In this document: piece after piece, positions 5,164 to 20,000 of the stretch
Position numbering within the stretch: position 1 is the first letter of the stretch
Layout: each line of letters begins with the position of its first letter
Virus record (IMG/VR): IMGVR_UViG_3300034418_007342
Coordinates: 56,111-76,110 of that record
Source of the DNA: an uncultured virus (IMG/VR IMGVR_UViG_3300034418_007342)
Taxonomy: Duplodnaviria; Heunggongvirae; Uroviricota; Caudoviricetes
Length of the DNA: 20,000 nucleotides
Strand: one strand, 5' to 3'
Translations under genes and position numbers: made by a program
Notes under the pieces: model-generated
Seen by the model: only the letters and a program-made list of their open reading frames with translations
Databases searched by the model: none
What the model was told of the DNA's origin: nothing

Positions 5164-5394
5164 TTAAAGATTTTTATTCAAGTCACTTTTCTTCACACGA
5201 TTTACTTCTAATGTTACACACATGGTGTTAAACTGTTGTCCTGGTTTAAGCCTGGGCCATAGTGTGTCACGAAGTTTTTTCTGGCACTGTTGTTCACTTT
5301 CATAATAACCTTCGTACTGTACCATTTCACAACTGGAGACCTGATTACTAGCACAGGCCATTATGACCGGAATAAAAAACGTTACTAGTTCCAT
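5164..5394 (-). CDS. Small protein with hydrophobic N-terminus and 4 Cys (possibly exported)
   Basis: MELVTFFIPVIMAC..., YESEQQC, TMCV; TAATG overlap with the upstream gene. Confidence 0.65.
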   Translation of the reverse strand: MELVTFFIPVIMACASNQVSSCEMVQYEGYYESEQQCQKKLRDTLWPRLKPGQQFNTMCVTLEVNRVKKSDLNKNL

Positions 5395-6689
5395 TATGCA
5401 CCTGCCAGTTCTTTTGCCTTTTCATAGTGAGCCCAAACACCAAAGGGCGGCTCGCACTCAGTGTTGCCTTTGATAATGAATACAGTATCACAGTAGTCGG
5501 GGTCACCCCACGAACCATATGGATAACCATCAGTAAACATGATAAACTTCTTAGGTTGAATATCATTTTCTTTCATGTAAGTCCAGTTACAGTCGTAGTC
5601 AGTACCACCACCGCCTTGGGGTTCATATTCCAAGATGCTGTCGAGATTGTCACTGCTAAACTCTTGATGATTGTACACTTCTGTATCAAATGACCAGATA
5701 TGAATTTTGTATTCATCATAGGCTTCCATAATGCCTTTGACTTCGCCCAGGAAAGCCTTGATGTCTTCGTCACCAATACTGCCCGACATGTCCAATGCGA
5801 TGTGCGCTTCAATTTGGTCACCGGGAATCATACCGGGCATAACTGCATCCATTGCCCAACCACGTCGGCTGGGACGCATCCAACTAAAGTCATCTTTGAC
5901 AATACTTTGGATCTGTTGCTGAAGCAGTTCACGCCAGTCAACCACAGGTTGCGTCAAGTCCTTAATAAGACGCTTAACACCTGAGGGCAAGTTACCTGCA
6001 CCTGTAGCCTGAGCAGCCTGTAGTACTGCTTCGCGAACTTCGTCACGAATTTGACGGCGTTCCTCATCTGACATTTTAGGACGACCTTTGCCGTTGCCTT
6101 CTTTGTCTCCGTCCTTGTCATCGTCCTGATCACCCGAACCTTCCTGCTCGTCGAGGTGCTCGTCAATCATTTTGTCAATGAGATCGCTGATGTCAATCTT
6201 CTCAGCCTTCTCATACAAATCGTCGTAGACTTCTTCAGCACTCCAACCTTGATACTTTGTATCATGCAGGCAAGGAGTAATCTTGTCGCCAATCCGTTGT
6301 TCAACCAAGTCTGCGTTTACGCAAAAGTCTGCGGCGCAATTAAAAAGCATAGGGTCACGATCCGGACCGCAACGACCCATATGGTCGTAGACATTATGTA
6401 ACACTTCATGCCCAAACAAGAATTCAAGTTCTTTGGGTTTGAGTTTGTTTACGAATTCGGTATTGTAGTAAAATTTCCTGCCATTGGTTGCGGCAGTGCC
6501 ACACCATGAATCAGCATTAACCAATTCCAGTCGAGTAGCCAAGTTACCAAAAAACGGAGCACGAAGCAACAAGCCAATTCGAGCAGTAGTCAACTTTTCA
6601 CGCACCGCACGATCCAATGCGGGATCTGTCGTTTCGGTTAGCCTGCCGCTGATGCCGGACTTGGGATTGGTTGTAGTATCTTTTGACAT
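5394..6689 (-). CDS. Metallopeptidase-like (HExxH) plus VWA-domain protein (DUF2201-like)
   Basis: TAATNG, HEVLH, FNCAADFCVN, acidic linker, VDWRELL, SWMRPSRR, MIDAS DMSGS, GGGGTD, FTDGY; AAGGAG RBS. Confidence 0.9.
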   Translation of the reverse strand: MSKDTTTNPKSGISGRLTETTDPALDRAVREKLTTARIGLLLRAPFFGNLATRLELVNADSWCGTAATNGRKFYYNTEFVNKLKPKELEFLFGHEVLHNVYDHMGRCGPDRDPMLFNCAADFCVNADLVEQRIGDKITPCLHDTKYQGWSAEEVYDDLYEKAEKIDISDLIDKMIDEHLDEQEGSGDQDDDKDGDKEGNGKGRPKMSDEERRQIRDEVREAVLQAAQATGAGNLPSGVKRLIKDLTQPVVDWRELLQQQIQSIVKDDFSWMRPSRRGWAMDAVMPGMIPGDQIEAHIALDMSGSIGDEDIKAFLGEVKGIMEAYDEYKIHIWSFDTEVYNHQEFSSDNLDSILEYEPQGGGGTDYDCNWTYMKENDIQPKKFIMFTDGYPYGSWGDPDYCDTVFIIKGNTECEPPFGVWAHYEKAKELAGA

Positions 6690-6710
6690 TTCTGCTCCTT
6701 GTTATAGTGT

Positions 6711-6753
6711 ATTATACAATCTTTCTGAATTATTGTCTATTAATACTAAAGTA
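6711..6753 (-). promoter_or_regulatory. Early-type sigma70 promoter with upstream TACT-WW-AGTA palindrome
   Basis: TACTTTAGTA (6753-6744), 4 nt, TAGACA (6739-6734), 17 nt, TATAAT (6716-6711). Confidence 0.75.
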
Positions 6754-6755
6754 TT

Positions 6756-6804
6756 AAAAGGGGAGGACTTACATGGTAAAGAAAGGAGTAAGACCAATGC
6801 CTCC
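6756..6804 (-). terminator. Hairpin plus short U tract after the AAA ATPase gene; loop carries an anti-SD sequence
   Basis: GGAGG/CCUCC and CUUAC/GUAAG stems followed by CCUUUU; contains UACUCCUUUC. Confidence 0.45.
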
Positions 6805-6809
6805 ATAAA

Positions 6810-7916
6810 CTATCGATTGCCGGCGCTTGCGGCTACAATGTACTTACCAAACCGCTTGTGGAACTCATCGAAATTCTTGAGTTTGCCAGGAACAAACGGC
6901 AGGTTGTAAGTGGTAAGAGCAGTACGAGCACCCATAACAGTCAACTCCGTTGTGAAATTGTCCATCATATAACGGAAGAAGTTATCTGCCATCTCATGCC
7001 ATTCTGCATTAGGCTTGCCACCAATCTTGTCTGCGGCATCCTTAAGTTCGTAGCACATACTGACTACCAAACTGTACATGGCGCTGACTTCTTTTACTTT
7101 GAGTTCTTTGACCTTACCAGCCAATACATCTTCAGGCTTGGGTAACTGTCCAGCAATCTTGCGGTGAGCCATAAACTTAACAGCCACACCCTCACCAACT
7201 GCACCTGTTACCAAGTCAGTGAGATCTGCTTCACCAACGTCCTCGTCTTCAAGGATTTCGCTAACAAAGGTCCACGAGCGAGGTGTAGCAAAACTACGAC
7301 TGCTACTACGCGGATCAAAGTCGTAAAGGTCCTGCTTGGCAAAGCCAATGTAACCGACCACGTCTTTGTGGATGCGGTTAATGGTAGCCCACGTCTCCCA
7401 TGCTTGGTGATCTACTCGCATCTCCAAGTGCAGGAAGCGGTTAGCCAACGGAGCAGGCATACGATAAGTAACACCCTTGTCCGATTCACGGTTACCAGCC
7501 GCAATCACTACCACATTGTCAGGCAGTTTATACTTGCCAATGCGGCGGTTAAGAATCAACTGATAAGCCGCAGCCTGAATGCTGGGAGCCGCTGAGTTCA
7601 TCTCGTCCAAGAACAAAACAACCACAGGATACTGACTGGCCAACTCTTCGTCGGGCAAGTCGATGGGCGGTGCCCAATCCATCAAACCACTGTCTTTATT
7701 GTAGTAAGGGATACCACGCAGGTCGGTGGGCTCCATTTGCGCCAAACGCAGGTCAATCATCAGACCATTTTGCTCTTCGGCGATACTGGCAACCACTTCA
7801 CTTTTGCCAATTCCTGGAGGACCCCATAGGAATACAGGGCGCTTCTTCTGGAAGCACTTAGAGATGAGCCGTGACGCCTGCTGGGTCGTTACGGTACGGT
7901 GTTCACTTACGGTCAT
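6810..7916 (-). CDS. MoxR-like AAA+ ATPase
   Basis: Walker A GPPGIGKS, DLRGIP, Walker B VLFLDE, sensor AAGN, PLANRF arginine finger, TPRSW; GAAAGGAG RBS; directly upstream of a VWA gene. Confidence 0.92.
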   Translation of the reverse strand: MTVSEHRTVTTQQASRLISKCFQKKRPVFLWGPPGIGKSEVVASIAEEQNGLMIDLRLAQMEPTDLRGIPYYNKDSGLMDWAPPIDLPDEELASQYPVVVLFLDEMNSAAPSIQAAAYQLILNRRIGKYKLPDNVVVIAAGNRESDKGVTYRMPAPLANRFLHLEMRVDHQAWETWATINRIHKDVVGYIGFAKQDLYDFDPRSSSRSFATPRSWTFVSEILEDEDVGEADLTDLVTGAVGEGVAVKFMAHRKIAGQLPKPEDVLAGKVKELKVKEVSAMYSLVVSMCYELKDAADKIGGKPNAEWHEMADNFFRYMMDNFTTELTVMGARTALTTYNLPFVPGKLKNFDEFHKRFGKYIVAASAGNR

Positions 7917-9322: not shown

Positions 9323-10462
9323 TTAGGATGTTATTGATTCTTTTGCGATAGGGTACATTCCTGCGATAAATCCTGTCAGTTTTTCCCCTTCTGCTACTGT
9401 TTGAAAATATTTGTTTTCAATTACAGAATGCAACCCTTGCATTGTTTCAAAGAAATGATAATTAAGTTTGTCATTCATTGCTGGATCAAGATCCATGAGC
9501 GCTAGATCCCACGCAAAATTAAAATTGCTCCATTTAGATCCTTGGAAAAAGTTAAGATCTACTTCTGGATAAATTATTGCTCTAATACAATTTTCGTAGA
9601 ACTCCCTGGCTCTTGGTGTTTGCGGCCACCGTATAAATTGTTTGAACATTGGATTTTCTTCAAAAAACCTTACAATTAAATGGCACTGCTTTGCAATCAT
9701 TCTTGCACTACTGGGATGCCAATAAAAATATTCTGTTCTTTCATTGTTAAGTTCCGAAGTTGTTGCAAAACCAACTTGATCTAAGAAATACAATTTGTAA
9801 GTATTGTCCTGTAAACATACTCTTGGTTTACATATACCCCAGATGATAATACTATTTTGCATTGTACTGATACGTTTTTCGATTGAAGATATATTATCTA
9901 TACTCCATCTTTTGTCAGCAAAATACGCTAGGTTTGTTCCTCTATGCAAACTAAAATCATCATCTATTTTATAATTGCTGTATCCATCAGTCCAATCATA
10001 AACAGTAATTTTAGTTTCGGGATGATTTTGTCTCATCCACTGTAGTTTGGGTTTTACAGTTAATTCCCATTCAGACAATTGATTGACATCTTTATAGTCC
10101 CATGGATCAGTACCTCGTACTTCTGAAAGTTTTACTGCCCATGAGACTACGATTTCGTCGATTTTCAGATTATTTTTTATAAATGCATTTAGTATATTGT
10201 GACTGTCAGAACCACCACTAAAAGCAAGTATTACATAATCGTAAGTTTGCCTTATCTCCTTTGCTCTTTGCGAATACAATTCACTGAGACTCTCCTCTGG
10301 CTCTTCAGACCAAGAAAATTTATCGAAAACATCATTGTTGAAGACCCATTCAGGGTGTATGTTTCTTTCTGTACCATCTATTAAGGCAGCAACCTTATTC
10401 AAATGAATTTTGTCGCCGACTTGATAGTAGCCTAGTCTCATTGAGGAAGGAGAATAAAGCAT
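9323..10462 (-). CDS. PP-loop (adenine nucleotide alpha-hydrolase/HUP superfamily) protein, substrate unknown
   Basis: YVILAFSGGSDSHNIL (SGGxDS) followed by IDEIVV; AGAGG RBS; starts 11 nt after the tctC stop. Confidence 0.75.
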   Translation of the reverse strand: MLYSPSSMRLGYYQVGDKIHLNKVAALIDGTERNIHPEWVFNNDVFDKFSWSEEPEESLSELYSQRAKEIRQTYDYVILAFSGGSDSHNILNAFIKNNLKIDEIVVSWAVKLSEVRGTDPWDYKDVNQLSEWELTVKPKLQWMRQNHPETKITVYDWTDGYSNYKIDDDFSLHRGTNLAYFADKRWSIDNISSIEKRISTMQNSIIIWGICKPRVCLQDNTYKLYFLDQVGFATTSELNNERTEYFYWHPSSARMIAKQCHLIVRFFEENPMFKQFIRWPQTPRAREFYENCIRAIIYPEVDLNFFQGSKWSNFNFAWDLALMDLDPAMNDKLNYHFFETMQGLHSVIENKYFQTVAEGEKLTGFIAGMYPIAKESITS

Positions 10463-10473
10463 GTTTTACCTCT

Positions 10474-11391
10474 TTACTTCAATAGTTTTTCGGTATCTTT
10501 GATTTGCTTGTTAATAAACACTTCTGCATCTGCACCTGGAGTCCAATCTACAGGAGCAAAAGCAACCTCTGCAAATTCTTTGAAACTATCAGTGGTAATA
10601 ATAGATTTCATACGATCTGCTAGTTTGGCTTTGTAAGCAGGATCCATATCTGCATTCACAGTAAGTCCTAGCCATAGACCAAATGTTTTCATATTTTGAT
10701 TAACTGAATCAAAGTTTGGCTTATCTTTAAGAATGCTGTTTTGCTTGATCATGTTGTAGCCTACAATTTGAAATTTGCCTGCTTTGGCTGCTTTGTAACC
10801 TACGCCTGGATCTAGCGCCAAGTCCAAATCACCTTTTGAAAGTGCTGGCAAAATTTCTGGGCCTTTCTTGAAAGGAACAACAACTAAGTTCAAATTGTAT
10901 TCTTTTGCCAACCATGCAATTTGGGCACGGTGTACACCAGTAAAGCCGCCTACTTTAATTGGCCGGTCAAAACTCCTTAGGTAAGACATCAGTGTATCCC
11001 AGGAATTAACTCCTTTAACACTGTTGGGTACATACCATAGTGTTGGTTCATCGCTGTACTTAACAAGAATTGATTTGTCGCTTACACCGATATCTTTGTC
11101 TTTGTGTACAAAACGGTTTTGTACCCATACACTACTACCATGGCAAAGAACTTTAGTTTTACTAGAGTTATTGCTCATTTCCCTAGCAGCCAAAATTCCA
11201 TCAGCACCGGTTTTAACATTGATTTTAACTGTTTCGTTGAATTTTTGTTCATACTCACTAAACATTTTTCGACAGATTCGATCTAGAAGTCCACCACCGT
11301 GTGTGAGGAAGGCTTCAAGTTGTTGTGCGTAAGAAAAATTAATAGTGCCAAGTGTTAGCGCACCTGTTAATAAGATTGATTTAAATTTCAT
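10474..11391 (-). CDS. tctC: Tripartite tricarboxylate transporter substrate-binding protein (TctC/Bug family), divergent
   Basis: Signal peptide (MKFKSILL...SYA/QQ), GGGLLDRICR, KTGADGILA, VPFKKGPEILPALSKGDLD, WLGL; downstream of tctA. Confidence 0.8.
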   Translation of the reverse strand: MKFKSILLTGALTLGTINFSYAQQLEAFLTHGGGLLDRICRKMFSEYEQKFNETVKINVKTGADGILAAREMSNNSSKTKVLCHGSSVWVQNRFVHKDKDIGVSDKSILVKYSDEPTLWYVPNSVKGVNSWDTLMSYLRSFDRPIKVGGFTGVHRAQIAWLAKEYNLNLVVVPFKKGPEILPALSKGDLDLALDPGVGYKAAKAGKFQIVGYNMIKQNSILKDKPNFDSVNQNMKTFGLWLGLTVNADMDPAYKAKLADRMKSIITTDSFKEFAEVAFAPVDWTPGADAEVFINKQIKDTEKLLK

Positions 11392-11420
11392 TAATTTCTC
11401 CGTAATAAAGTCATAGACAA

Positions 11421-11450
11421 ATTATACTTTTTTGTATAAAACATTGTCAA
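11421..11450 (-). promoter_or_regulatory. Consensus sigma70 promoter for tctC with overlapping palindrome
   Basis: TTGACA (11450-11445), 18 nt, TATAAT (11426-11421); TTATAC-N6-GTATAA inverted repeat at 11422-11439. Confidence 0.8.
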
Positions 11451-11464
11451 TAGTTTTGGTTTAA

Positions 11465-11578
11465 TGCTTGCGAGAATTCGCTTACGGACGGCGTTCTGTT
11501 GTAACACAACAGTAAAAGAGTTTTGCTACTCTAAGCGTCGATTGATTGTTCCGACGTCACATCATTGTGGCGTTGCTA
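11465..11578 (-). ncRNA. Candidate structured RNA (family not recognised)
   Basis: About 115 nt of non-coding sequence, GC-richer than its flanks, forming five consecutive hairpins and starting just after TAAATA (11588-11583). Confidence 0.55.
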
Positions 11579-11581
11579 GAA

Positions 11582-13066
11582 TTATTTAGTCAACTGTCGA
11601 TGTAAGTAATTAAATTTTCTGACAAAACTCCAAAGTATAAAGATTACACTAATTGACAAAAAGAACAAACTTATATTGCTTTCTAAAAATTTCATAAAAC
11701 TGCCATCTGAAATCGTTAGTGTTCGCCTTAGGTTTTCTTCAAATAAAGGTCCTATAATATATCCAAAGATTAAAGGCGCTGACTCTAACTTACAGAATAT
11801 AAAAACAATACCCAACAAAGTAAAAAATATAGCAGTGCCTACATCAAACCAACTCTCTTTGATAAAATAGACTCCAACTAATGCTATGGAAATTAATAAA
11901 GGATATAAAATAGATTTTGGATAACTTATAATCTTCATCCACATTTTTACAAATGGTATGTTTAGAAATAACAAAAACATATTGCCTAGAAGCATACTTG
12001 CTAGTAATCCCCAAAATAATTCAGGATACTCTGTAACGGTCCCGGGACCAGGTTGGACGCCATTTATAATCAGCGAAGACAGTATCAACGCCATAACTGG
12101 ATTTTCAGGAATTCCCAAAGTCAGCAATGGAATTAGGCTTGTTTGACTAGCAGCATTATTGGCACTTTCCGGGGCCGCAACTCCTTCTATTGCGCCCTTT
12201 CCAAAATCTTGTTTGTTTTTACTTACTTTTTTCTCTACTACATAAGCGGCGAAAGCACTCATAACTGCACCACCACCCGGAATCACACCCATTACTGTTC
12301 CTACTCCTGTACCTCTTAGTATACTAGGGATAACTCGTTTTAAATCCTGGAAACTAAATCTGAGTTTAAACTCCATGGGTTTATTTTCTAAGTTTTTGTC
12401 TAATAAATGCGTTACTAAGGCCGGCAATCCTAACACACCAATAACTAACGCTCCAACAGTAATGCCATCTACTAGTTCAAGTTGATTAAGTGTGAATCTT
12501 TCTGTGGCAGAATTTATGTCTGTGCCAACAGTTCCTAATAGCATGCCAATACAGGCCATGCCCAAACCTGTCACAAGGTTTTCACTAGTAATTACACTAA
12601 TGCTTATTATACCCAATAACATTAAACTGGCAAACTCTGTTGGTCCGAACTCAAAAGCAATGTCACTTAGTGCTGGAGCGGCAAAGGCAATGGCAAATAC
12701 TGCAAAGATACCAGCAACAAAACTGCCTATGCCTGCTGAGATAATTGCTTCGCTGGCCCTGCCTTGTTGTGCCATTGGATACCCATCTATACAAGTCATT
12801 ACTGTACTGGGTTCTCCTGGCACATTAAGCAAGATACTAGTATTGGATCCTCCATATTGTGCTCCATAGTAGATTCCTGCCATAAGAATAATACTAGTAA
12901 TAGGATCAAAACCGTAGGTAAAGGGTAAAAGAATACTTAAACAAATTACAGTACCGATACCCGGTAGAATACCAATAGCAGTGCCTAACAAACAACCTGC
13001 AATTAGAAACAATAAATTATTAATTTCAAATACTGTTTGAAATCCGAGCAAAAGATTGTCTATCAT
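11582..13066 (-). CDS. tctA: Tripartite tricarboxylate transporter permease TctA
   Basis: IGILPGIG, IYYGAQYGGS, ILLNVPGEP, DGYPMAQQGRA, GVIPGGGA, EGVAAPESANNA, IPLLTLGIP, GVQPGP, EENLRR. Confidence 0.95.
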   Translation of the reverse strand: MIDNLLLGFQTVFEINNLLFLIAGCLLGTAIGILPGIGTVICLSILLPFTYGFDPITSIILMAGIYYGAQYGGSNTSILLNVPGEPSTVMTCIDGYPMAQQGRASEAIISAGIGSFVAGIFAVFAIAFAAPALSDIAFEFGPTEFASLMLLGIISISVITSENLVTGLGMACIGMLLGTVGTDINSATERFTLNQLELVDGITVGALVIGVLGLPALVTHLLDKNLENKPMEFKLRFSFQDLKRVIPSILRGTGVGTVMGVIPGGGAVMSAFAAYVVEKKVSKNKQDFGKGAIEGVAAPESANNAASQTSLIPLLTLGIPENPVMALILSSLIINGVQPGPGTVTEYPELFWGLLASMLLGNMFLLFLNIPFVKMWMKIISYPKSILYPLLISIALVGVYFIKESWFDVGTAIFFTLLGIVFIFCKLESAPLIFGYIIGPLFEENLRRTLTISDGSFMKFLESNISLFFLSISVIFILWSFVRKFNYLHRQLTK

Positions 13067-13236
13067 TTCTTGACTCCGTTAAGTACCCCTAATAATATTA
13101 AAAATAATCCCAAAGCCAACGGAAAAAATCCTGGGCCCATTTTAGACAACGAGCCAATTTTGTAAAATATAACTGCGCCGATGCTAAAATAGGCACCAAT
13201 GCTACAAAACAGTAAACTGGTAATAATTTTTTTCAT
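13063..13236 (-). CDS. tctB: Mini TctB-like membrane subunit (57 aa, about 2 TM helices)
   Basis: Below the track cut-off; MKKIITSLLFCSIGAYFSIGAVIFYKIGSLSKMGPGFFPLALGLFLILLGVLNGVKK. Has the TctB GxxxxMGPGxFP motif and ATGA overlaps at both ends. Confidence 0.8.
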   Translation of the reverse strand: MKKIITSLLFCSIGAYFSIGAVIFYKIGSLSKMGPGFFPLALGLFLILLGVLNGVKK

Positions 13237-13616
13237 GTATTGATTTCTAAGTTTTCCAAATAACTTCTTAGATCGCCGTCCATTAATGATAACATACTTG
13301 CTTCTGTTTCGTCAAACACAATTATTTTTTTATTTTGAAACAAGTAGTAAGGACCTTGAAAGTATCGTTCAAGTTGAATGAGGTTTTTACTGGACAACGG
13401 CGATTTTAATTTATACTCGTAACCTTTTAGTTTAACATTGTCCATTAAAAATTGATAACCTACTAAGTTTAATCTGAGACTTTCATTATCTACAGGATTA
13501 AACCAGATACGGCGTTGCCATGTGCTTAGTTGTTGAACAGGTATATTCGACGAAGCTAGAAACACTTCGGTTAACTGTCTTTGTGTATACCTTTTAGGGG
13601 AAGATTTGGTCACCAC
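13233..13616 (-). CDS. Hypothetical phage protein (127 aa)
   Basis: ORF in operon; WFNP...SLRLNLVG...PYYL...DETEASMLSL. Start uncertain. Confidence 0.75.
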   Translation of the reverse strand: MVTKSSPKRYTQRQLTEVFLASSNIPVQQLSTWQRRIWFNPVDNESLRLNLVGYQFLMDNVKLKGYEYKLKSPLSSKNLIQLERYFQGPYYLFQNKKIIVFDETEASMLSLMDGDLRSYLENLEINT

Positions 13617-17579: not shown

Positions 17580-17752
17580 CACCAAAAGCCCAGCGTTCTG
17601 CCGTTGCCCACTATAATGAATACGCAGGTTGTGATGTGTAGCACAACCCAAAAGGTTCTAATTACAGCAACTCTTGTGTCATAAGGTCGAGTAGTTTCGT
17701 CATCAAACGAACCAATAGCATACTGCCATGTTTTCCAAAAACTTTTAATCAT
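17579..17752 (-). CDS. Small membrane protein (57 aa)
   Basis: Below the track cut-off; MIKSFWKTWQYAIGSFDDETTRPYDTRVAVIRTFWVVLHITTCVFIIVGNGRTLGFW; 1-nt overlaps at both ends; one hydrophobic helix. Confidence 0.75.
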   Translation of the reverse strand: MIKSFWKTWQYAIGSFDDETTRPYDTRVAVIRTFWVVLHITTCVFIIVGNGRTLGFW

Positions 17753-18651
17753 TATGCCAAACTTGCGTACAAGTGTTGTTGTAAGTTAAGTTTAAATCCG
17801 TTCTCAATACAGAACTGACCCACGTATTCGTGATTGCGTTGATTGTCTGCTAAGTTAAGCAGTCCAGGTTCCCAGAAACTAATAACTTCATCAACAGTAC
17901 TACGCTCTGCCATTGTGATTGTGCCTTTTTCCGCACGTAGTAATTTAATCCGTTGTGGAAAACTGTTGTAGATATTCATAGGACTACAGTAGACTTCTTT
18001 GTTGGGATTGTTTGCCTTCCACTCAATGGCCCAGTCTGGAACTGTGCTGTATGGCGACTCTGGGTCTGCACTGACCACAAACTTCAAACAGTCTGCACGT
18101 TCTAAGATAGTCTTACTTGGTGCAAGATACTTGATAGCACGCCCATTCTTTTCAATGCACTTGGGACTACATACTAGGGTCACGCCTTCGGGCACTTCTG
18201 TCTCTGGCACACCGTTGCTTTCAACCTGAACTGCTTTGTAATTTGCTAACTGTTCCTGCATCCATTCTGTAATGTTTTCCTGTAGCAAAGGTTCACCACC
18301 AGTCATTACCAACACAATGTTAGGATACTGTTGGCTGTCTCTTGGATCACCGTTGTCAACTGCAGGTACTGCCCACTCTGGAACCGACTTGCCTTTGTCT
18401 AGCCAAAAGCCTGTAATAGTTTCGTGTGCTTTGCGTTCCAATTCTGCAAACGTCATCCATTCACCGTCATCAAAGAAAGTGTCGCAAAAACTGCAATCCA
18501 AGTTACACTTGGTCAAACGGATAAACAACGCAGGCATACCAGCGTAGGGTCCTTCTCCTTGTAGTGTAAAGAACATACTGGTTACAAATAGACTGCGCTC
18601 AGGTGCATCTTTAAAATACTTTTTGCCAATAATTTCGTTAGTGCCAAACAT
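17752..18651 (-). CDS. queE: 7-carboxy-7-deazaguanine synthase (radical SAM)
   Basis: FFTLQGEGPYAGMPALFIRLTKCNLDCSFCDT (CxxxCxxC), MTGGEPLLQ, VESNG, VCSPK, LKFVV, LNLQQH. Confidence 0.88.
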   Translation of the reverse strand: MFGTNEIIGKKYFKDAPERSLFVTSMFFTLQGEGPYAGMPALFIRLTKCNLDCSFCDTFFDDGEWMTFAELERKAHETITGFWLDKGKSVPEWAVPAVDNGDPRDSQQYPNIVLVMTGGEPLLQENITEWMQEQLANYKAVQVESNGVPETEVPEGVTLVCSPKCIEKNGRAIKYLAPSKTILERADCLKFVVSADPESPYSTVPDWAIEWKANNPNKEVYCSPMNIYNSFPQRIKLLRAEKGTITMAERSTVDEVISFWEPGLLNLADNQRNHEYVGQFCIENGFKLNLQQHLYASLA

Positions 18652-18653
18652 AG

Positions 18654-18941
18654 TTAATCTTCCGGATTCAATGTAAATTGGATATTACTCCAAGTTTTTA
18701 ATTTTTCTCTTTTATTTGCTTTTGCTTGATGTAGCCTATCTAAGTTTAACATTTTACGCTCTATTGCAATATCAATCAAGCATAATAAATCGCCAATTTC
18801 ATCTTCTAGTGTTTCTTGCTGGCTTTTGTTTGAGTGATAATTGATTTCGTCAATGCCAAAACGTCTAATTTTACAGACAACTTGGCTTACTTCTGCACAC
18901 TCTTCCTGTAGTATGCACAATATTTCTTCTTGTTCGGTCAT
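18654..18941 (-). CDS. MazG-like NTP pyrophosphohydrolase
   Basis: LQEECAEV...LEDEIGDLL acidic metal-binding pattern. Confidence 0.8.
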   Translation of the reverse strand: MTEQEEILCILQEECAEVSQVVCKIRRFGIDEINYHSNKSQQETLEDEIGDLLCLIDIAIERKMLNLDRLHQAKANKREKLKTWSNIQFTLNPED

Positions 18942-19746: not shown

Positions 19747-20000
19747 TTACCCTTCGTAGATAGCACTGTTGCCTGCGTGTTCAAATACTTCTGCGCTTTT
19801 GATACGCACAGTGGGATTAATAGGATAACGCATGGTACCGCTGGCAATCAGTTCGGACATTTTGTCGTAGCACATTTTTGCAAACATTTCGCAGCCAACA
19901 CCTTCTACAATCCGTAAATCACAGACAGCTTCGCGTTCATGTGGTTTCACAGACTGTACTGCACCTGTGCCACTGTCTAATGGCAGACCCATGTTGGACA
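19747..20000 (-). CDS. queD: QueD/6-pyruvoyl-tetrahydropterin synthase family, C-terminal part (5' end outside the window)
   Basis: Frame is open to the window edge; CDLRIVEGVGCEMFA...SAEVFEHAGNSAIY matches the T-fold C-terminus; queE nearby. The N-terminal His motifs are not visible. Confidence 0.72.
   Translation of the reverse strand, partial: SNMGLPLDSGTGAVQSVKPHEREAVCDLRIVEGVGCEMFAKMCYDKMSELIASGTMRYPINPTVRIKSAEVFEHAGNSAIYEG

Follow-up and report, generated by a model that had tools for sequence, protein, structure and literature searches.

A conserved RNA and a PP-loop enzyme gene accompany tctC in a jumbo-phage gene block

Introduction

What are transporter genes doing in the genome of a virus, and which of their neighbours belong with them? 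The question is raised by the window, a 20,000-nt stretch of the uncultured Caudoviricetes virus IMGVR_UViG_3300034418_007342 (C1:56111-76110 of a source record of 76,110 bases). Its positions 9323 to 13236 hold, all on the minus strand, a shortened tctB, a tctA and a tctC of the tripartite tricarboxylate transporter (TTT) type, together with an RNA candidate, a promoter and a gene with an SGGxDS loop. A sequence-only reading had taken these for a transporter-plus-enzyme module with split regulation; all six elements lie where it had placed them, and its interpretation is partly supported. Here, we show that tctC and the enzyme gene form a tight unit, that tctA is more loosely attached, and that the RNA belongs to a large phage family preceding many different uptake genes. 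We give about an even chance to the reading in which the block is a jumbo-phage operon that imports and converts a small carboxylate, headed by a cis-acting RNA.

Results

tctC and the enzyme gene recur as neighbours

Linkage was measured on 55 clusters (90% identity) formed from the best 80 of 475 viral stretches with a relative of the enzyme gene. In 35 of the 55 a TctC-like gene lies within the enzyme locus, and in 24 it directly adjoins the enzyme gene, against 4.7 expected from gene-order shuffling, which bears out the recurrent co-occurrence of tctC and the PP-loop gene anticipated for the window. Either gene may come first, tctC leading in 36 and the enzyme gene in 23 of 59 distinct adjacent same-strand pairs. 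Over 54 representatives the tree distances of TctC and enzyme co-vary (Mantel r 0.27, p 0.001), and in 26 of the 54 the enzyme paired with the nearest TctC ranks among the three nearest enzymes. When loci were found by the RNA pattern alone, 40 of 66 had both tctC and the enzyme gene within 3 kb. In the window's TctA clade, 5 of 18 rows (window included) have the enzyme gene in the flank that was fetched, against 0 of 12 in a second viral clade, so that the earlier idea of transporter and enzyme as one module holds for tctC and loosens at tctA. Other genes of these islands encode DctP, desaturases, 2-oxoglutarate and Rieske oxygenases, and nitronate-monooxygenase-like, AMP-binding and radical S-adenosylmethionine (SAM) proteins.

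A structured RNA is conserved among phages

The RNA of the window (11466..11576, minus strand) comprises 111 nt and seven helices arranged in a four-way and a three-way junction. Rfam 15 gave no match for it at the gathering score or at E up to 10, and folding of the single sequence does not make a convincing case (z from -1.2 to -1.8 for the minus strand, and -2.2 and -2.8 for the plus strand). What establishes the RNA is its homologues and their covariation. Homologues before tctC or enzyme genes in other phages were found by nhmmer, and a pattern built from ten of them returned at least 120 matches in viral contigs. A covariance model matched all 79 loci on which it was tried over its full length (81 matches, with one overlapping locus excluded), and a profile matched each of the remaining 40. 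In a model-fitted alignment of 78 distinct rows with a mean identity of 62%, the 24 core pairs are 96.7% paired and covary strongly (0.472 versus 0.176, 0 of 500 shuffles; slid controls at most 0.112). The RNA candidate of the sequence-only reading is therefore real; that reading had missed the TAAATA motif at its 5' end and the large family to which it belongs.

From 5' to 3', the helices are P0, a 2-bp closing helix; P1, a hairpin with a C-A mismatch; P2, which closes a variable linker; P3, a second C-A-mismatch helix; and the hairpins P4, P5 and P6. Covariation is strong in P1, P4 and P5. In a MAFFT alignment of 20 rows, to which variant rows were added on purpose, each pair of P0 shows one compensatory change, and a permissive search detected a P6-like segment with the P0 partner behind it in 75 of 78 RNAs. 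P3, which is invariant throughout, is a helix that we infer. A pairing of column 21 with the 3' end proposed by RNAalifold was replaced, as mutual information gives 21-48 (A-U 59, G-C 12, G-U 6). Since the first pattern forced invariance in the middle of the RNA, a second pattern used the ends only; it gave 45 model matches in 44 of 79 loci (the others taken as pattern noise), and among 41 distinct sequences the core is kept in 37. Exceptions include L381 and L438, with compensatory changes in P2, and L427, which has neither P2 nor P6. Two copies carry about 60 additional bases in the variable linker (L311:2890-3083 and L267:126-322), and in L280 and L313 the RNA occurs as a tandem pair, each copy heading its own gene (tctC, then dctP or tctC).

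Among five near-complete genomes (316-357 kb, three of them picked for having the RNA), four have a single RNA copy and all five have the enzyme. No credible copy was found in 151 + 151 sampled proteobacterial genomes, two samples that may overlap, or in 80 cellular tctA loci; the sole cellular match (31 bits) was rejected, as it lies within an open reading frame (ORF) and lacks the core.

The RNA lies between a probable late promoter motif and uptake genes

Context was counted over 69 clusters at 90% identity, four of which have no usable gene call. The motif TAAATA stands at the 5' end of the RNA in 66 of the 69 clusters; in the window it lies at 11583..11588 (minus strand), overlapping the tctA stop codon. 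On the contig the motif precedes 9 of 65 called genes against 0.9 expected, several of them structural, baseplate included, and together with its recurrence before RNA homologues this points to a probable phage late promoter. We take it to be one by its likeness to the T4 late consensus. The motif passages of the PA5oct paper give TATAATA and TTGAC and no TAAATA (PMC7318152), and thus do not confirm the label.

In 64 of the 65 clusters with a called gene, the next gene lies on the RNA's strand. The median distance from the end of the RNA model to that gene is 20 nt, and a same-strand gene begins within 42 nt in 59 of 65. The first genes are TctC (19), DctP (13), the enzyme (7), DUF2061 (5), hexapeptide acyltransferase (4), desaturase (3) and TauD (3), with single occurrences that include TctA, an ABC binding protein and a porin; the ORF caller missed DctP in at least two RNA loci. 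In several different phages (L329, L265, L034, L498 and L427), DctP is divided between two ORFs, each of about 160 aa (or shows a 156-aa first half), often directly behind the RNA; judged from these sequences, this is apparently a recurrent split or a programmed frameshift.

Between the RNA and tctC of the window lie a sigma-70-type promoter matching the consensus at 12 of 12 positions (11421..11450, minus strand) and a Shine-Dalgarno (SD)-like GGAG (11398..11401, minus strand). The promoter fits the split regulation proposed earlier for this genome, in which tctC and the enzyme gene have a start of their own; across the family such an arrangement is in the minority, with a sigma-70-like site between RNA and gene in 9 of 78 homologues, window included. 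As the other 69 have none, their genes appear to be read through the RNA.

Position, orientation and the usual lack of a second promoter make it likely that the RNA is a cis-acting leader, an assignment from sequence that we consider highly probable. A rival explanation regards the RNA as an independent late small RNA riding in the same island, and gives the enzyme a separate role, for instance in amidation of surface sugars or modification of a nucleotide. Its own promoter motif and closing helix do define a compact unit, most of the five near-complete genomes hold one copy, and in the window a separate promoter serves tctC; the enzyme also has a weak match to the WbuX amidotransferase (E 0.0045), and queE and queD lie in the same window. 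This explanation is nevertheless improbable, given that a same-strand gene follows the RNA so closely, that no terminator was found, that most homologues have no second promoter, and that tctC-enzyme adjacency is five times expectation.

The enzyme is predicted to be closest in fold to asparagine synthetases

The enzyme gene (9323..10462, minus strand) encodes 379 aa with an SGGSDS PP-loop, and Pfam and PHROG searches gave no family for it. Its SGGxDS loop is set on a Rossmann-like fold, as in AANH-like PP-loop ATP pyrophosphatases. In the predicted model (predicted local distance difference test, pLDDT, 92.8), the five best structural matches are AsnB (1ct9), human ASNS, beta-lactam synthetase (1jgt), TsnB9 (7ylz) and CarA (1q15), with Z from 10.5 to 8.2, followed by GMP synthetase (Z 7.5) and NAD synthetases. 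By these best matches, the fold closest to the modelled enzyme is that of asparagine synthetase. Enzymes of the AsnB fold adenylate a carboxylate and then form an amide or related bond. There is no room for a full glutaminase domain, since the PP-loop lies at residue 82 and the alignment begins at AsnB residue 71, and the conserved N-terminal Cys (Cys1 of N-terminal-nucleophile glutaminases) is not present in the family. Among 120 family members, SGG[SA]DS is found in 88 and an FQxxK-like lysine motif in 107. The sole match in PDB sequence searches with the enzyme profile, to a methyltransferase, was insignificant and was dropped.

With E values up to 1e-30, 1,016 representatives of clusters at 50% identity belong to the family. 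Its Atlas clusters are 99-100% viral where the taxon is known, and in BFVD it matches phage proteins that are themselves uncharacterised. In cellular genomes, searched with the own genome as positive control, an order sample centred on Polynucleobacter (401 genomes) gave no match, and a phylum sample of 401 genomes gave one partial match of 70 positions and no full-length match. The enzyme was likewise found in 0 of 80 cellular tctA loci. Two matches contain one in-frame stop each (G781:C1:116380-117540 and G783:C1:233552-234673), which may reflect overlap with a neighbouring gene or broken genes. Often beside the main enzyme lie other island families, about 310 aa long and with an SxGxDS-like loop (L072:3142-4065 and L032:7064-7993); one of them has a weak QueC match.

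This confinement of enzyme and RNA essentially to viruses is compatible with a wholly phage-encoded signalling circuit, in which the AsnB-fold enzyme would make or convert a diffusible amide, TctC or DctP with TctAB would import it, and a riboswitch on late transcripts would sense it. Several diverged tctC-enzyme pairs coexist in single genomes (L016, L024 and L042) and fall in different clades in both trees, as expected if paralogous pairs had different specificities, and the neighbouring genes resemble tailoring enzymes. We consider such a circuit unlikely all the same: no product, exporter or ligand has been identified for it, and most genomes tested combine one RNA with one to several enzyme genes.

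The transporter genes include a viral TctA and a halved TctB

The product of tctC (10474..11391, minus strand; 305 aa) is a divergent solute-binding protein of the TctC/Bug family. It scores 26.7 bits against PF03401, just under the cut-off of 27, and its predicted model (pLDDT 94) matches Bug27 in Foldseek (E 3e-19, template-modelling score 0.77) as well as TphC, BugD and MatC, the top rows all being TTT binding proteins. It has a conserved Cys40/Cys83 pair and an N-terminus that, judged by eye, is signal-peptide-like; as none is seen on the enzyme, TctC should be periplasmic and the enzyme cytoplasmic.

TctA (11582..13066, minus strand; 494 aa) is intact. It matches PF01970 with 467 bits, and the glycine signature G-x3-G-x3-G-x2-P-G-x-G, as given in the passage on this family in PMC5812351, occurs twice, at residues 24 and 252. 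The TctA phylogeny called for in the sequence-only reading, a quick LG+G4 tree of 102 rows, places the window's TctA inside an all-viral clade of 18 (Shimodaira-Hasegawa-like approximate likelihood ratio test, SH-aLRT, 97) nested in mostly proteobacterial sequences, with a second viral clade of 13 rows separate from it. The tree drew long-branch warnings and has no bootstrap; its cellular set is the best 80 matches listed, and we classed eight high-GC contig-end IMG/VR matches as cellular. In the second viral clade (L125-L160 and L122-L124), a tctC of about 350 aa adjoins tctA, and neither tctB nor the enzyme was found there. Within it, L122-L124 have a TctA of 614 aa, possibly a fusion.

The mini-TctB (13063..13236, minus strand; 57 aa) has two hydrophobic segments, half of the normal four-helix TctB and short of the four to five transmembrane helices that define the family. 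Its PF07331 match (E 3e-5) is below the curated cut-off and covers model positions 3-47 of 137. A tctB lies directly upstream of tctA in 16 of the 18 dereplicated rows of the window's clade (six of 57-63 aa, one of 104 aa and nine of 132-159 aa), and in the 80 cellular tctA loci all called TctB ORFs are at least 146 aa, except one of 62 aa.

The block lies in a jumbo-phage contig

CheckV estimates the contig at 22% completeness, which would imply a full genome of roughly 345 kb. Elsewhere it encodes baseplate wedge, hub and tail-fibre proteins and SbcC/D-like nucleases, and the flanks of the window match phage exonuclease, ATPase, thymidylate synthase and QueE families. The exonuclease places the nearest cultured relatives among the PA5oct/Paride-type Pseudomonas jumbo phages and the Rak2-like jumbo phages, at about 50%. 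The block is also present at 100% protein identity in four IMG/VR records, one of which stops after tctC, and in three metagenome contigs; these assemblies may share samples, so that the recurrence speaks only against a one-off misassembly. These findings confirm that the contig belongs to a jumbo phage and that the block is a real, recurrent jumbo-phage unit. Cellular contamination or a chimera might have been suspected, because tct genes are normally cellular and some IMG/VR TctA matches are indeed high-GC contig-end host flanks (L005-L009, L099, L103). With phage genes on both sides, the same block in other assemblies, a viral TctA clade and the enzyme missing from the cellular tctA loci, this explanation is vanishingly improbable, and the contig is viral as the earlier reading had assumed.

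That reading had also described an AT-rich block joined to phage operons by ATGA overlaps. The block does have less GC than the rest of the window (36.4% versus 41.3%); the contig as a whole has 38.1%, and 30% of contig windows of equal size are as low, so the composition is not distinctive. ATGA overlaps exist only at the 5' side, between the upstream gene and tctB and between tctB and tctA, whereas tctC and the enzyme gene are 11 nt apart. The upstream gene (13233..13616, minus strand; 127 aa) has homologues of about 30% identity in other phage loci. The site beside it is an island hotspot, carrying enzyme/tctC or tctA cassettes in other phages (L040, L043-L046, L051, L109), inverted in some.

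Elsewhere in the window, QueE-like (17752-18651), MazG-like (18654-18941) and QueD-like (19747-19998) genes suggest a probable 7-deazaguanine pathway, and 5394-7916 holds an AAA ATPase with a DUF2201 peptidase/vWA pair. The same contig (G000) has an ORF of 4,473 aa (C1:16117-29538) and a run of unannotated 350-600-aa genes (C1:38570-55750), which by eye look radical-SAM- and transferase-like.

Discussion

In the operon that we propose, a TAAATA late-type promoter would start a transcript whose first ~110 nt would fold into a two-junction structure with an invariant core, and this leader would control the next gene by binding something. Periplasmic TctC may capture a carboxylate and hand it to TctA; this would be the phage's own protein if the phage has one and the host's if not, along the lines suggested for orphan Bug proteins. 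The cytoplasmic enzyme may adenylate a carboxylate with ATP and form an amide with an amine or ammonia; it could act on the imported compound, or make the compound that TctC binds, and both orders, import then amide formation or synthesis then import, fit. Since the two proteins should reside in different compartments, a small molecule common to both accounts for their pairing better than contact does. In this genome, the host-type promoter would give tctC and the enzyme gene a second, RNA-independent route.

Several observations weigh against this proposal. A run of at least five T near the 3' end of the RNA occurs in only 13 of 69 clusters, and pairing of the last hairpin with the SD region is not above shuffles (mean z -0.42, 51 tested); in these crude tests, no expression platform, either terminator or anti-SD signal, was found. 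The genes downstream are chemically mixed (desaturase, acyltransferase, TauD, halogenase-like), a poor fit to one metabolite. The comparative fold of the window RNA lies 9 kcal/mol above its minimum-energy fold, and short variants (L427:1469-1589 and L498) keep P1 and the P3-P5 junction without P0, P2 and P6, both preceding DctP. Across 94 sources seeded with the enzyme or TctA, the RNA turned up at only 11 places, so that most enzyme genes are not directly behind it. For the proteins, the resemblance of the enzyme to AsnB is modest (Z 10.5, root-mean-square deviation 5.1 Å, 288 residues, 10% identity), Foldseek put LarE and GMP synthetase first with weak matches only, Pfam TctC is matched by 6 of 12 sampled TctC-like neighbours, the others relying on an iterated profile, and linkage alone could yield the co-divergence of neighbouring tctC and enzyme genes.

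These points bear most on what the leader binds. The invariant junctions and the uptake genes favour a metabolite, and the missing terminator and anti-SD signals, the mixed gene set and the short variants disfavour it; we hold metabolite binding to be possible, at somewhat under an even chance, and protein binding to be conceivable with a shade less conviction. The RNA is a conserved structure directly 5' of functionally related genes, as riboswitches are, the relatedness being partial, and we tentatively suggest that it represents a riboswitch class that is new and, whatever it binds, restricted to jumbo phages. The alternative is a constitutive leader or a protein-binding element (a translation enhancer, stabiliser, localisation or feedback site) that senses no metabolite, before genes that form a general late host-remodelling cassette without a shared ligand. 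It would accommodate the missing signals, the mixed genes and the short variants that still precede DctP, and further the A/T-rich, open spacer before the SD and an RCGCC/GACGY helix with a C-A mismatch that occurs twice, as a dimeric protein site might, its second copy without covariation. We find it rather doubtful, because many junction nucleotides are invariant, even when the pattern did not require them, and because the RNA is strongly biased to uptake genes.

Whichever ligand is involved, the RNA is a new, well-supported motif with more than 100 viral representatives and a clear gene context, the enzyme belongs to a phage family of more than 1,000 clusters without assigned function, and the matched binding proteins offer a direct route to the ligand. 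If the proposal is true, jumbo phages run regulated solute uptake late in infection and do not merely carry stray host genes.

Among 50,697 phage records, cultured phages, including those of the PA5oct/Paride and Rak2-like types, gave no match to the enzyme, TctC or RNA. We found no paper on a phage TctABC operon, this PP-loop enzyme or this RNA, in a search outside which most subscription literature lay. tctA has been noted in SUP05 viral contigs as a domain match of unknown role, in a passage that mentions no TctB, TctC, enzyme or RNA (Roux et al. 2014, PMC4164917). The catalogue of Fremin et al. (2023, PMC10690425) lists DNAVirus_2108, an anonymous candidate viral RNA with 24 sequences, one of them at most 25 nt from a TctC gene, which is not among the main-text passages of that paper; the phage RNA may overlap it, and by catalogue rows, not alignment, DNAVirus_2108 is 70 nt long with 3 covarying bases, compared with 111 nt for the phage RNA.

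Compared with bacterial riboswitches before transporters, the phage RNA is likewise a leader of several helices whose junctions are invariant, and it too lies immediately 5' of uptake genes; yet it has no Rfam family, is not in the ~300 sampled proteobacterial genomes, is tied to a phage promoter motif and has no detected expression platform. The enzyme has its top five structural matches in the AsnB family, with up to 288 residues aligned, and carries an SGGxDS loop as well, but differs in its ~10% identity, in its 379 aa without a full glutaminase domain, and in the lack of a Pfam Asn_synthase match in any of 120 family members, no other sequence-level match having been found. With TctABC systems (TC 2.A.80) and orphan Bug proteins, the phage genes share the TctA family and its signature repeats, the Bug27/TphC/MatC fold, a small partner gene before tctA, and the habit of many TctC genes to occur without their own membrane subunits, as described in the relevant passage of PMC5812351. 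They differ in forming a viral clade, in a TctB reduced to two helices, as here and in 6 of 18 rows, in a TctC less than 20% identical to solved members, and in being tied to a ligase-like gene and an RNA instead of a TctDE two-component system, none of which was seen in the window. Nothing in the libraries and literature searched corresponds to the RNA-led unit or to the pairing of enzyme and TctC; taken by itself, the transporter is a variant form of a known family.

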